The position numbers were made by a program, and so were the translations under genes. This document shows positions 580 to 5,216 of a DNA stretch of 41,353 bases, one piece after another; within the stretch, counting starts at the first letter, position 1; every line of letters begins with the position of its first letter. The notes under the pieces are model-generated. The model saw nothing but the letters and a program-made list of their open reading frames with translations. It had not been told where the DNA came from and made no database searches. This DNA comes from a virus: the UHGV virus genome UHGV-0007119, one strand, 5' to 3'.

Positions 580-2730
580 TTACGGCGCACTGGATAAAAT
601 AGACTTCGTCTTCGTAACAATAACATCTACAAAATCACCTGCAGATATAGCTGATGGTACTGTATCTGCAAGAGTAATCTTTCCTGAAGAGATGTTTTGC
701 ACATCTAATAATTTATTTTCAACCCCATCCGTATATACCAATTTGACATCACTGAATGGAGGGTAATAAGTGGCTGTTCCTTGGTATACATATATTTCAC
801 TGCCTGAAATTGATTTCACTACATACCTGCCCCTTACAAGATTAATTTTGATTTCAGATAAATCGGTTTTATAACAGGTAATTCCTGAACCAATGTTAGC
901 CATACTAATATCAGTATCACTATAATAAGTAATTGCTTTTCCTTGTTTTAAGGTGAAGTTATCTTTTCTTTTCCTTGGCAAGGATGTGCTATTTTTGTAA
1001 TATCTACCAGTTAAGCATAGCCATGAAAATGCAGTATTCGCTACATTACCACCAGAATACACAGCTAAACGAATTGCACTAACTGGAACCCCTTCATTAT
1101 TAATCCTGATCTTAATGGAAGAAATGTTAGCAACAGTAGCATATCTATGGTTAGATGAATCCCATTGCATAGAAGAAGTTATTGCTTCTGTTTGTGAAGT
1201 TATGACATTCCCATCTCCATCTAATGCATACAGGTAAATGCGAAACGATGCCGTATCTGCTGAGAATGTAAACATATCACCATTTCTTACTGGTACATCT
1301 CCAGATTCCCATAACAACCCAAAATTCCGCATAAAAGCAAACTTAGAAGAAACCAGGTGACGGATATTATATAAACCATCTACATCTGTTTGATATGCTA
1401 ATACACCAACTTCTCCATTGTTGGCACTGGATATAAATGGGGTGTTAGCATTTAAAGAAAACAATGTTACTTCATCGGATATATTTTCCTGAACATGAAA
1501 TACTGCATTCCCCTTGCCATTATCAGTTACCTCTACATAAGTGTAAGGTGATGGATTGTATGGTTCATTTGTATAGTAAGGAGAACTTAACCATGAAGCC
1601 TCAATTGAGTTATTCCACGTATATTCACCAAAGTTAATTATCAACTGTTGGTTAGTTATGGATGATGGATATCGTTCAAAACGAAACCCGTAGAAGTAAT
1701 TGTTATCACCTCTTTGAATATCAATTTTACCTGCCCCCTCCATAGTTCCACCATAAAACTTATTGTGGTTATGATGATATGGATTATCAGCGAAAATGAT
1801 ATTATTCGTACGATTCAGATAAAAATAGTTTTCATTTATCCATCCTTTCTCAACTCCAAGAAAATGAATTGTATCGACCTTTTTCAGGTTAAAGGTTGAG
1901 TATGCTATTGAATAATCCGTCGATGCCACCGAAGCATTATAATTTGCATATAACTGTAAGTAGTCGCAACGCTCAATGTTAATATGCTGCCCTTTTGCCC
2001 CGATAATACGAATATCCGGTGTCGTTTCAGATGAAATACCAGAATTTCTGATAATCGTTCCGAAGTTTTGTCTTGGGTTGTTAGGGTTTGATGCATTCCC
2101 GCCAAGCAATACCCCTATTCCTGAGTGGGATATGGTAAAAACAGCATTGGTCATTTCGAGGCTGACATTACGAAGATTTAATGTCTCCGTAATAATAAAA
2201 TTACCTTCCGCTCGTAATGTTCTGGATGATTCTCGTGCATATTCTGCAGCCAAGATCAATGCAGATGTGTCATCTGTTATACCATCGCCTTTTGCCCCCC
2301 ACCCTCTTACATCACAATCGTCCCTCCACCGAGATATCTGCAATTCAGGATATTTTTTAGCTCCATCCGGGTCTTCTAATTGCTGCCGTAGTTGATCAGG
2401 GTCATACTTCAGCACATTAGGAAAATAAAACTGCTGAGTGCCATATGCATCATATACAGCCATAGAATGGCCTTGCACAGTTACGAATTTGGCAATCTGC
2501 CCGTTATATACCGGATATCCAGCAGCGTTAATGATGATTGGTTGCGAAACGGGAACATGAGAGCCGTCTTCGTTCTCCACATAAACCTGAATCTGGTTTT
2601 CAGGATTTACCGGGTCAGTGTCAATTTTTCCGATATAAATTTTGCCATTGGCAACCGCTTTAAAAGAACGCGCCATAGTGAAGAGTTGCGAAGGCATCGA
2701 TACGATCACATTGGCTGTAATGTCTGTCAT
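580..2730 (-). CDS. Tailspike protein: P22-type N-terminal head-binding domain, divergent beta-helix receptor-binding domain
   Basis: 716 aa; first ~110 aa ([11 protein letters not shown]…NVLKYDPDQ) match the remembered P22 gp9 head-binding domain; the rest is unrelated with a [13 protein letters not shown] pectate-lyase-like motif and lower GC. Confidence 0.9.
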
Positions 2731-2830
2731 TTAATTTGCTCCAGATACAATGAATCGCCGCAGCGTGGCCACGGTGAATTTTGGGCATAAAAAAACCCAG
2801 CCGAAGCTGGGTCGTTGCGTTGGTTATCTG

Positions 2831-3766
2831 TCAGTAGTTATGTACTGAAGGAGGTAATTCTTTATTCTTAAGTCTCATCCATGCGGAAAGATTCTTTGGT
2901 CCGTCTGGCTCATTGATATCAACATCTCGTGTGTGATTGATTAAAACGTCTCTCGCCATTCCGATAACATACGAGAACTCATGACCGTAGTCGTAGCATC
3001 TGCCGGAATAGTTCGATTGAATTTGTTTTAATGCCGGATACAGTTCGCGGAATAATGCCTGTGAGCGGTTGGCATAATCCCATAACCATACAAGGCTGTT
3101 TGCTTCTTTTGCAGAAAGCTCGTTGGTTTTCTTCTCTTGTTTGCCAATGAACTCACCTTCAAGCGGAACGCGAGCAGCAAGTGACAGTGCTTCGGTAAAC
3201 TGCTCCTCACTGATTTCTTTGTACGAACATCCAAAATGGGATTTCAGTGACGACCACATGGTGATCATCGCCTTAGCCTGTTTTTCCTTTGGCAGAGACT
3301 GACCGCGACTCATGACGAGTTGTTTAATGGCTTCCTGCTGTTCAGTGGTGATTTTACCCGGCAACGTCTTTTTAGCTTTGCGTGGGTTAACTACATGGCC
3401 TTTAGTCCAGTAGTCATACAGCACGCTAAAGCATTCCTCCTGGTACTGAATCAGTTTATCACGGATGTCAGCACGAACTTTCTCAGGGTTGATGCTGAAC
3501 AGCCATCCATTTAACTTCTTCAAAGGAAGGCAGAGTAGCTTACGAAGCTTCCCATCAGCGGCAACCATGTTCATATGAACACAGTTGAATTTGCTAATCT
3601 GCTTCATGAGTTTTGTTTGCTGCGTTGACCAGCTCATTCCAAGGTTTTCAACGATTGGCTTCATCGCAACGTATGCAACTCCGGCAGCCATGGCGGTGAT
3701 AATTTGCTGACCGTTGAATGGTACGTAAGAGGTGTTCACTGCTTCTAAAATTGCTATACTATTCAT
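2831..3766 (-). CDS. ant: Antirepressor Ant (P22 immI type)
   Basis: Start at internal Met ([21 protein letters not shown]…) preceded by GGAGAAAAACCAAC; sits directly downstream of arc as in P22 immI. Confidence 0.85.
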
Positions 3767-3834
3767 GTTGGTTTTTCTCCACGGATTTACTGACAACCGA
3801 AGCCCTGACTGTTCCCGCAGTTGGGGCTTCAACT

Positions 3835-3996
3835 TTACGCGCCAATGCGCCCTTCCTTCTTAAAGCTTTCCATTACTCTCTGATAAATCTCAGAGTTAAC
3901 AGACCGACCATTCTCTTCCGCCACCTTGCGTACCAAATCCAATACTTCTTTAGGCCACCGCAAATTGAACTGCGGCATCTTGCTCATTCCTTTCAT
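3835..3996 (-). CDS. arc: Arc repressor
   Basis: 53 aa from internal Met: [53 protein letters not shown], essentially the remembered P22 Arc. Confidence 0.9.
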
Positions 3997-4086
3997 ATTC
4001 ACCTCACAATATAGGTCCACCGTGGACCTATTGAGAATATAGTAGAGTGCTTCTATCATGTCAATACACTAACTTGGAGTGATGGC
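3997..4086. promoter_or_regulatory. immI control region (divergent Pant/Pmnt) with Mnt and Arc operators
   Basis: 17-bp palindrome AGGTCCACCGTGGACCT at 4013-4029 (Mnt operator type); ATAGTAGAGTGCTTCTATCAT at 4039-4059 is the reverse complement of the remembered Arc operator. Confidence 0.75.
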
Positions 4087-4338
4087 ATGGCTAGAGATGA
4101 TCCGCACTTTAACTTCCGTATGCCTATGGAAGTAAGGGAGAAATTAAAATTCAGGGCGGAGGCGAATGGGAGATCAATGAACTCCGAGTTGTTACAAATC
4201 GTCCAAGATGCTCTATCAAAACCATCGCCTGTGACTGGATATCGCGACGATGCAGAACGACTCGCTGATGAGCAGTCAGAGCTTGTTAAGAAGATGGTGT
4301 TTGATACGCTGAAGGATTTGTACAAAAAACCCACCTGA
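4087..4338 (+). CDS. mnt: Mnt repressor
   Basis: 83 aa, MARDDPHFNFRMPMEVREKLKFRAEANGRSMNSELLQIVQDAL…, near-identical to remembered P22 Mnt. Confidence 0.9.
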   Translation: MARDDPHFNFRMPMEVREKLKFRAEANGRSMNSELLQIVQDALSKPSPVTGYRDDAERLADEQSELVKKMVFDTLKDLYKKPT

Positions 4339-4348
4339 AGGTGGGTCC
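4324..4348. terminator. Bidirectional intrinsic terminator between convergent mnt and the lipoprotein gene
   Basis: Stem CCCACC/GGTGGG with loop TGAA, flanked by AAAAAA on the plus strand (T-run on the minus strand) and a weaker T-rich tract downstream on the plus strand. Confidence 0.55.
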
Positions 4349-4354
4349 TATTTA

Positions 4355-4774
4355 TTAGTCTTGCTTTGTTGATGGTATAAGAGATGCGTTTGCCTCTTTT
4401 GGCTTCAAGGTATACATTCCACCATTAAATGGATCTACAGCAAGCCAACCAATTAACCCACCAAACACAAGGTTCCCACCAATATACCAACCATTAGCAT
4501 TGGCTTTGATTGGCAGGGTAACTGGTTCATACCCATCCTTCTCCATAGTGATCTGGTAGCTCTTTTTGCCAAAATAGCTACCATCTGACTTGGCGAGCGT
4601 TACACCTTGTGGGGTCTTACCTTGCGCAACAATCACACCTGACTCATCTTTTACCTTAAAGCTCGCGCCAGAAGGATTGCTGTTCACTTGCACAAGTTGC
4701 GTTTCATCACCAACAATAGTTGCGCACCCAGATAACATGATAACGCCAGCAACGACGCTAATAATCCTCTTCAT
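4355..4774 (-). CDS. Lipoprotein of unknown function (moron at the P22 sieA position)
   Basis: Start at internal Met MKRIISVVAGVIMLSGC: signal peptide plus lipobox LSGC; glycine-rich C-terminal segment; AT-rich relative to neighbours. Confidence 0.7.
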   Translation of the reverse strand: MKRIISVVAGVIMLSGCATIVGDETQLVQVNSNPSGASFKVKDESGVIVAQGKTPQGVTLAKSDGSYFGKKSYQITMEKDGYEPVTLPIKANANGWYIGGNLVFGGLIGWLAVDPFNGGMYTLKPKEANASLIPSTKQD

Positions 4775-4892
4775 ATCAATTTCCATATTTAAAAAAAACG
4801 GAAACATCCTAATGACAAATCATTCAAATGTGAAGTAGGCAAAAGATGTTTACTTTTTTCATGGTATCCTGCTCAAAACTAAGGAGGTTGGT

Positions 4893-5216
4893 GTGTATAC
4901 AACAGTTATCGTGATAGCTATCGCACTCATTGTGGTTCAGTACCAACTGGCATCTTTAAAACAAAAGATATCTGACCTCAAGACTGAGAACGAAGCACTT
5001 AAAAACTCAATAAAAGATGAGAAGAACAAACTATCATTCACTATATCTGATATTGAGCAATCCATTGAAATTATTGAGAATAATATTAACAGACTAAAAA
5101 AAGAAGATATTCATGAAATCAATGACAATATCAAGGGTTTGAAATCTTGGCTTAGGAATGTAGGGCAAATCGCCACATCAACACGAGATAAGCTCAATCC
5201 ATCCATGGATGATTAA
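4893..5216 (+). CDS. Small membrane-anchored coiled-coil protein, unknown function
   Basis: GTG start 5 nt after AGGAGG (4882-4887); N-terminal hydrophobic helix (YTTVIVIAIALIVV) then heptad-like charged region; divergent from the lipoprotein gene; AT-rich. Confidence 0.55.
   Translation: MYTTVIVIAIALIVVQYQLASLKQKISDLKTENEALKNSIKDEKNKLSFTISDIEQSIEIIENNINRLKKEDIHEINDNIKGLKSWLRNVGQIATSTRDKLNPSMDD

Follow-up and report, generated by a model that had tools for sequence, protein, structure and literature searches.

We report that the interval between the arc and ant genes of the phage genome UHGV-0007119 (plus strand, 3767 to 3834 or 3836) is almost certainly the ortholog of the sar RNA of phage P22, i.e. 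a cis-antisense RNA of approximately 68 nt that belongs to the immI region and would act through the same mechanism; the P22 mechanism is the best explanation because every sequence element is conserved here. Judged from its sequence, the feature is the already known, ordinary sar RNA and not merely a sar-like one. All coordinates refer to the window, i.e. the whole stretch of 41,353 nucleotides that was analysed.

The P22 sar RNA was discovered experimentally and is said to go back to work by Liao et al. in 1987, Wu et al. in 1987, and Schaefer and McClure in 1997. [quoted passage not shown] Within immI it works jointly with Mnt and Arc (PMC11016777; PMC2629481). Reads of sar have been recovered by small-RNA sequencing of P22-infected Salmonella (PMC13397905), and sar was detected by RT-qPCR in UAB_Phi20 (PMC12111858). 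The epsilon34 genome paper lists sar and calls the immI region of that phage apparently functional (PMC2629481).

Identity of the RNA and layout of the immI region

When the whole window was scanned, RF00262 (sar RNA) was the sole Rfam match at the gathering threshold. The match covers 3767-3834 on the plus strand with 95.6 bits (E = 2e-19), which is more than twice the gathering score of 43, and it spans model positions 1-68 of 68 with no truncation. With this E-value, a chance occurrence of a sar-like feature is ruled out.

Promoter and RNA together (121 nt, 3725-3845) show 100% identity to epsilon34 and UPF_BP1 and 97.5% to P22, and megablast of 3600-4100 against phage records gave 99.2% identity to UPF_BP1, 98.8% to epsilon34 and 93.5% to P22 and many P22 relatives. 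Three positions differ from P22, each being C here and A in P22: 3782 in the apical loop of sar hairpin 1, 3814 in the loop of hairpin 2, and 3737, which is the last base of the Psar -35 hexamer and is synonymous in Val10 of ant (GTT-to-GTG). The P22 record BK000583 annotates the sar promoter, the sar antisense RNA, the sar terminator, the arc/ant promoter, the mnt promoter and two operators, while the epsilon34 record (EU570103) annotates sar and "Psar by similarity" at the corresponding bases; in a three-way alignment of the window, P22 and epsilon34 the annotated features fall base for base on the window.

The window RNA thus shares with P22 sar its locus in the arc-ant spacer, the strand relation, a start adjoining the ant ATG, the length, the two-hairpin fold and the -10 hexamer TATACT, with 68 of 70 RNA bases identical; it differs by the two loop substitutions and by the A-to-C difference at the end of the -35 hexamer. 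Moreover, Ant has 311 amino acids in the window and 300 in P22, and the window phage is an E. coli P22-like mosaic, not P22. Compared with epsilon34, where sar is annotated, and UPF_BP1, where it is unannotated, there is no difference within sar, and the flanks (arc, 5' end of ant, mnt) are 98.8-99.2% identical to the window.

A possible sar-like antisense RNA at the arc-ant junction had been suggested in the first-pass annotation. This suggestion was borne out by the full-length RF00262 match, the 100% epsilon34 identity and the P22-equivalent position, and the alignment with the P22 sar region that it proposed was run with a positive result (the 97.5% over promoter and RNA given above). Its judgement that the signals are weak did not hold, given the Rfam E-value and the stability of the fold (z = -5.41, see below); that judgement arose because the promoter and the terminator look poor to generic criteria, and it is not evidence against sar.

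The interval sits in a P22-type immI region that lies in reverse orientation. The features in and around it are:

580-2730, minus strand: tailspike gene
2831-3766, minus strand: ant, the antirepressor gene that sar would regulate, 311 aa (Pfam P22_AR_N, E = 7.7e-45; P22_AR_C, E = 5.5e-30)
3732-3760, plus strand: Psar, aligning with the annotated Psar of P22 BK000583 (one mismatch) and with that of epsilon34
3764-3790, minus strand: predicted target of sar, the ant translation-initiation region on the arc-ant mRNA, read from the minus strand
3767-3834: arc-ant spacer, 68 nt, bounded on the minus strand by the arc stop codon (3835-3837) and the ant ATG (3764-3766)
3767-3836 following the P22 annotation, 3768-3835 following epsilon34 or 3767-3834 following Rfam, plus strand: sar antisense RNA, from Rfam and alignment
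3767-3794, plus strand: sar hairpin 1, a 6-bp stem (3767-3772 with 3789-3794) with two G.U pairs and a 16-nt apical region
3799-3830, plus strand: sar hairpin 2, the terminator stem-loop, in which 3799-3812 pair with 3817-3830 (14 bp, three of them G.U) around a UCCC loop
3835-3996, minus strand: arc, the Arc repressor gene, 53 aa (Pfam Arc, E = 9.8e-31), aligning with P22 arc
4013-4035: Mnt operator, mapped from BK000583
4031-4059, plus strand: Pmnt, overlapping Pant
4039-4059: Arc operator, mapped from BK000583
4064 to 4036, minus strand: Pant, TTGACA/TATATT
4087-4338, plus strand: mnt, the Mnt repressor gene, 83 aa (Pfam Arc and Repressor_Mnt), aligning with P22 mnt

The P22-type immI set is complete, i.e. 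mnt, arc, ant, the overlapping divergent promoters Pmnt and Pant, and the Mnt and Arc operators. Pant and Pmnt scored 11/12 and 10/12, respectively, in the promoter scan, and the operator region matches P22 at every position from 4014 on (4011 and 4013 differ). Psar and Pant converge, Pant on the opposite strand being directed towards Psar; in P22, transcription from Pant reportedly interferes with Psar. The arc-ant spacer has the 68 nt first ascribed to it (exactly 3767-3834) and sar fills it exactly, beginning at the base that adjoins the ant start codon and reaching the arc stop codon, which overlaps the 3' end of sar. By construction, sar is fully complementary to the ant translation-initiation region and covers the ant Shine-Dalgarno sequence (GGAG at 3780-3777, followed by a 10-nt spacer and the AUG at 3766-3764, all on the minus strand).

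The phage hence carries a complete, apparently functional immI module (mnt, arc, ant and sar), and therefore the antirepressor is expected to be under three-level control, as in P22. Automatic annotation had left sar unmarked, and flagging it is useful for annotation and adds no new biology. Mildly new, and descriptive, are the codon-embedded -10 element, the strand asymmetry due to G.U pairs, the constant hairpin 2 combined with a variable hairpin 1, and the wide spread among Enterobacterales.

With respect to the phage as such, the virion genes are ≈95% identical to those of the E. coli phages vB_EcoP-611R6 and HK620, and to CUS-3 and Sf6, and the early region resembles vB_EcoP-683R2, HK022, mEp506 and HK542. 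The window is thus neither P22 nor epsilon34; it is an E. coli P22-like mosaic phage or prophage with an immI cassette of the epsilon34/UPF_BP1 type. The ant gene shows 97.8% DNA identity throughout to that of Salmonella phage UPF_BP1, and the epsilon34 ant gene (300 aa) aligns in two pieces, with only 78% of window 2731-3800 covered, which means that a central ant segment has been exchanged.

Some neighbouring features were also noted. A clean intrinsic terminator (2788-2811, minus strand) is located in the gap that separates the ant stop codon (2831-2833) from the start of the tailspike gene (2730); its sequence is CCCAGC-TTCG-GCTGGG with eight T's after it, and epsilon34 has an annotated terminator in the matching stretch. 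The tailspike (716 aa) has a conserved P22-type N-terminal head-binding domain. Its receptor-binding part is matched by some E. coli phages only: the matches begin at about base 55 in the case of vB_EcoP-611R6 and Gally, but not until about base 2260-2400 for HK620, CUS-3 and Sf6; this pattern is that of typical mosaicism and would imply an O-antigen specificity other than those of P22 and epsilon34. At 4329-4346, mnt is followed by a terminator-like hairpin. Two "ant moron" genes are located between mnt and the DNA-transfer genes: 4355-4807 (minus strand), positioned like epsilon34 gene 15, encodes a protein of 150 aa whose N-terminus resembles that of a lipoprotein (...MLSGC...) and for which Pfam gave no match, and 4893-5216 (plus strand) encodes a protein of 107 aa that is hydrophobic in a segment near its N-terminus and whose Pfam matches, to coiled-coil families, are all sub-threshold.

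Promoter, fold and terminator of sar

Psar is composed of the -35 hexamer GTGTTC (3732-3737), a 17-bp spacer, TG at 3752-3753 and the -10 hexamer TATACT (3755-3760). It overlaps ant codons 3-12 on the opposite strand, and the extended -10 element TGcTATACT (3752-3760) lies opposite Ser3 (AGT), Ile4 (ATA) and Ala5 (GCA); ATA is a rare codon in enteric bacteria. Promoter-like hexamers GTTCAC and TATACT had initially been pointed out around 3734-3761 and both are present (3734-3739 and 3755-3760), but GTTCAC, at a distance of only 15 bp from the -10, differs from the -35 hexamer annotated in P22; the latter maps to 3732-3737 and reads GTGTTC here and GTGTTA in P22. The TG at 3752-3753, which makes the -10 an extended one, had been overlooked.

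The -35 hexamer is poor: GTGTTC agrees with TTGACA at 2/6 positions, and P22 GTGTTA at 3/6. A generic sigma-70 scan, which demanded at least 4/6 in the -35, reported Pant and Pmnt and did not report Psar, because of this poor -35. Psar would belong to the class of extended -10 promoters with a weak -35, and promoters with an extended -10 depend little on the -35 element. The 8-base motif TGNTATACT occurs once in the window as against 0.74 occurrences expected by chance and is alone not significant; its significance comes from its position and its conservation in relatives. Thus, TGCTATACT is found in 8 of the 10 relatives detected by BLAST, while the other two carry TGCTACAAT (SPN3UB) and TGCTATAGT (GF-2), and the TG upstream of the -10 is retained in all ten. 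In SPN3UB and GF-2 the encoded amino acids are altered, yet the TG and a good -10 (TACAAT and TATAGT, respectively) are kept, which suggests that the DNA signal is under selection in addition to the protein. Across phages of Salmonella, E. coli, Cronobacter, Edwardsiella and Erwinia, conservation in this region is highest in the block TTGCTATACTnnTCATG, in which the TG-extended -10 (TGcTATACT) is followed by the start codon of ant and this in turn by the first sar base.

A composite DNA pattern made of the extended -10, the ant ATG and the base of hairpin 2, with hairpin 1 and the interior of hairpin 2 left free, was found in at least 120 IMG/VR contigs. Among the IMG/VR matches listed (at least 120 copies), the hexamers at 17-bp spacing were GTGTTC (37), GTGAAA (36), TTGATA (25), GTGTTA (16) and rarer forms (6), T2 and G3 being the only constant -35 positions. 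These numbers bear on the reading that the locus descends from sar but is silent, Psar having been inactivated by the A-to-C change at 3737 or by the E. coli host, and that the interval is kept as ant leader and arc 3' end. The low agreement of GTGTTC with the -35 consensus and its absence from the generic scan output speak for such a loss. However, GTGTTC is the commonest -35 form among the IMG/VR matches listed, exceeding the P22 form GTGTTA 37 to 16, the extended -10 with its low dependence on the -35 is intact, and G.U pairs of use only to a plus-strand RNA are retained in stems that covary across relatives (see below). We therefore regard a silent sar as very improbable, and an active sar RNA as the preferred reading.

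The 70-nt sar RNA is predicted to fold into two hairpins with -29.4 kcal/mol, as compared with -14.6 ± 2.7 kcal/mol for shuffled sequences (z = -5.41; 0 of 200 shuffles were as stable), and the minimum free energy structure is the same as the centroid structure. The apical region of hairpin 1 contains the anti-Shine-Dalgarno motif CUCC (3777-3780), i.e. the complement of the ant GGAG. The hairpin GAAGCCC...GGGCTTC originally placed at 3800-3830 exists, with a 14-bp stem, and begins one base earlier, at 3799. P22 has its sar terminator annotated at hairpin 2, and the mapped terminator hairpin lies within 3799-3836.

As a terminator, hairpin 2 has a strong stem (14 bp, -21.9 kcal/mol), but its U tract amounts to three U's: the sequence 3' of the stem is AACUUUA, with U's at 3834-3836 only, and this U run overlaps the arc stop codon. 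A generic terminator scan of the window, for which at least five T's were required, did not report it. The tails after the hairpin are similar in relatives, e.g. CAACUUUU and CACUGUUU. Since the generic scans reported neither element, the efficiencies of initiation at Psar and of sar termination rest on homology, and termination after hairpin 2 is accepted as probable by homology with P22. The reads attributed to sar in the P22 small-RNA data form a cluster of 104 nt that extends ≈30 nt beyond the hairpin (PMC13397905), suggesting that sar termination may be leaky or that the ends are imprecise.

Strand preference, selection on structure and proposed mechanism

Folding favours the sar strand. 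The full sar has -29.4 kcal/mol on the plus strand vs -20.1 kcal/mol for the reverse complement; for hairpin 2 alone the values are -21.9 and -16.0 kcal/mol, and for hairpin 1 alone -4.3 and -0.8 kcal/mol. Among the matches listed, the sar strand is the more stable one in all 59 unique variants, by 9.6 kcal/mol on average. This advantage over the complement is due to conserved G.U pairs. The sense RNA (101 nt) is no better folded than its shuffles (z = -0.66).

Covariation was assessed with a covariance model built from six window-type sequences, with which 48 matches were aligned and 47 distinct relatives counted. This alignment replaced one made with MAFFT and RNAalifold, in which stem 1 was out of register and stem 2 alone was recovered, because the sequence of stem 1 differs wholly between ant classes. 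In the 47 distinct relatives, 96.5% of the cells form a standard pair vs 85.2% in shuffles, and compensatory changes on both sides were seen in 13 of 20 pairs vs 7.7 in shuffles (6/6 pairs in hairpin 1 and 7/14 in hairpin 2); the alignment was fitted to the model structure, so the counts are biased towards that structure, and independent single-sequence folds agree with it. None of 500 shuffles reached any of the pairing measures, and sliding the partners by 1-3 columns left 33-44% paired. The retention of G.U pairs that are useful to the plus-strand RNA only, together with the covarying stems, argues for continuing selection on the RNA.

The same asymmetry decides against the hairpin at 3799-3830 acting mainly on the sense (minus) strand, as attenuator, terminator or mRNA stabiliser, with no functional antisense RNA. 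We give this reading hardly any credence: the minus strand does form a hairpin (-16.0 kcal/mol) and the title of Schaefer and McClure (1997) refers to ant mRNA target structures in P22, but that hairpin loses three pairs to A.C mismatches and is followed by GGUUGU instead of a U tract, hairpin 1 barely forms on that strand, the sense RNA does not differ from shuffles while the plus strand is the more stable in every listed variant, and the conserved extended -10 located 7 nt upstream of the RNA start would be left unexplained. A sense-strand terminator as the main function was consequently rejected on strand asymmetry; a secondary sense-strand role beside sar is possible.

For an active sar RNA, the preferred reading, the following course of events is proposed. 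RNA polymerase would start at Psar with the G at 3767, adjoining the ant ATG, as the first base of sar, and transcription would head away from ant through the arc-ant spacer and, by homology, stop past the 14-bp hairpin and the short U run. Hairpin 2 would act as terminator and probably as a stabiliser of the RNA as well. As in P22, sar would then pair with the ant translation-initiation region of the arc-ant mRNA and block ribosome binding, which would lower antirepressor synthesis post-transcriptionally, on top of the repression of Pant by Arc and Mnt; at low Ant levels the prophage repressor would be protected and lysogeny favoured. For the UHGV-0007119 phage we infer the transcript, its ends and the repression of Ant from the experiments on P22.

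Comparable arrangements are lambda OOP/cII, P22 sas, IS10 RNA-OUT/RNA-IN and R1 CopA/CopT, which likewise involve short, highly structured, constitutive RNAs with full complementarity to a 5' mRNA region (PMC5415839, PMC12197685). OOP, sas, RNA-OUT and CopA act post-transcriptionally like sar, whereas their sequences are unrelated and their targets and outcomes differ. OOP leads to RNase III cleavage of the cII 3' end, and CopA acts on a leader peptide; unlike these two, sar covers the Shine-Dalgarno sequence and directly abuts the ant start codon.

Relatives and spread of the cassette

BLAST with the 121-nt segment identified Cronobacter phage ES2, the E. coli phages Kapi1, CUS-3 and EC.P3, the Salmonella phages SPN3UB and SEN22, Edwardsiella phage GF-2 and Erwinia phage Midgardsormr38. 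At ten loci, i.e. those of P22, epsilon34 and these eight phages, a sar match (E ≤ 0.01) was obtained in nine cases, seven of them above the Rfam threshold; SEN22 (32.4 bits) and GF-2 (32.1 bits) fall below the RF00262 gathering score, and the Midgardsormr38 locus gave no RF00262 match at E ≤ 0.01. The distant copies (CUS-3, Kapi1, EC.P3, SPN3UB, ES2, GF-2, Midgardsormr38 and those in Xenorhabdus, Hafnia, Pluralibacter and Citrobacter prophages) share the design, with an extended -10 in the first ant-type codons, an RNA start adjoining the ATG, an anti-Shine-Dalgarno motif in hairpin 1 and a long terminator hairpin. They differ in hairpin 1, the sequence of which is entirely unlike that of the window and is paired with a different ant N-terminus.

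The IMG/VR matches listed comprise 59 to 70 unique RNAs, depending on the length of the 3' tail, and the exact RNA of the window is the commonest of those listed, with 11 copies. For the 70 unique RNAs among the matches listed the printed folds are two-hairpin folds, two variants having minor extra pairing. Hairpin 1 falls into at least 16 helix types among the IMG/VR matches listed, and an anti-Shine-Dalgarno-like motif is present in its apical region in 59/59 unique variants listed. Hairpin 2 is nearly constant across the cassette copies while hairpin 1 is variable, with for example a GUUGGU type in the window, a GUCAAUA type in Kapi1 and a GUCGUUA type in CUS-3. Species-representative genomes of several Xenorhabdus species and of Hafnia, Pluralibacter, Citrobacter and Entomohabitans likewise contain the composite pattern, and all of these copies fold into two hairpins. 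In complete E. coli genomes a 501-bp immI segment was matched in 473 of 5,426, with at least 80% query coverage in 114 and in up to three places per genome; RefSeq E. coli records under the immI matches list protein genes alone, with no sar RNA feature.

Could the sar cassette (an extended -10 in ant codons 3-5 plus a two-hairpin RNA) be a portable module wider than the curated family, with the hairpin 1 types as RNA-level specificity classes? P22 sar reportedly acts in trans, as attributed to Wu et al. in 1987, and for this reason hairpin 1 types could serve in this way; if so, the sar of a resident prophage would silence the ant of an incoming phage only when the hairpin 1 types match. We put this forward as a speculative and rather unlikely proposal; what the data show is the diversity of hairpin 1 and its distribution.

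The codon-embedded promoter elements, the G.U-based strand asymmetry and the spread to Xenorhabdus, Hafnia, Erwinia and Edwardsiella are modest extensions of the 1987 discovery. From one ant class to another, hairpin 1 and the ant 5' end are wholly different, while hairpin 2 and the arc side are nearly identical; in the CUS-3 record (L005 426-887), a mosaic "boundary sequence" named bsq2 is annotated, with its start 8 nt inside sar. On the basis of this boundary and the class differences, a recombination joint appears to fall in the middle of the sar gene.

Two sequences contain a second copy or a second sar-like match. In IMGVR_UViG_2840037452_000004 the main copy is at 2217-2287 and a second sar-like match (29.7 bits) at 450-513 on the plus strand; the latter starts after a CAT, i.e. 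the start of a gene on the opposite strand, and has two hairpins and a U tract, and a second gene in this phage may accordingly be under sar-like antisense control. Xenorhabdus beddingii NZ_MUBK01000057.1 has two copies of promoter and sar, at 2280-2358 and 2906-2989, with a distance of 626 bp between them. The gene headed by the first copy is a full ant-like one (273 aa) accompanied by arc-like and mnt-like genes, and the second copy, which looks like a remnant cassette, heads only a 49-aa open reading frame that resembles the ant N-terminus (MTSIAINQAQNTN...) and overlaps the mnt-like gene.
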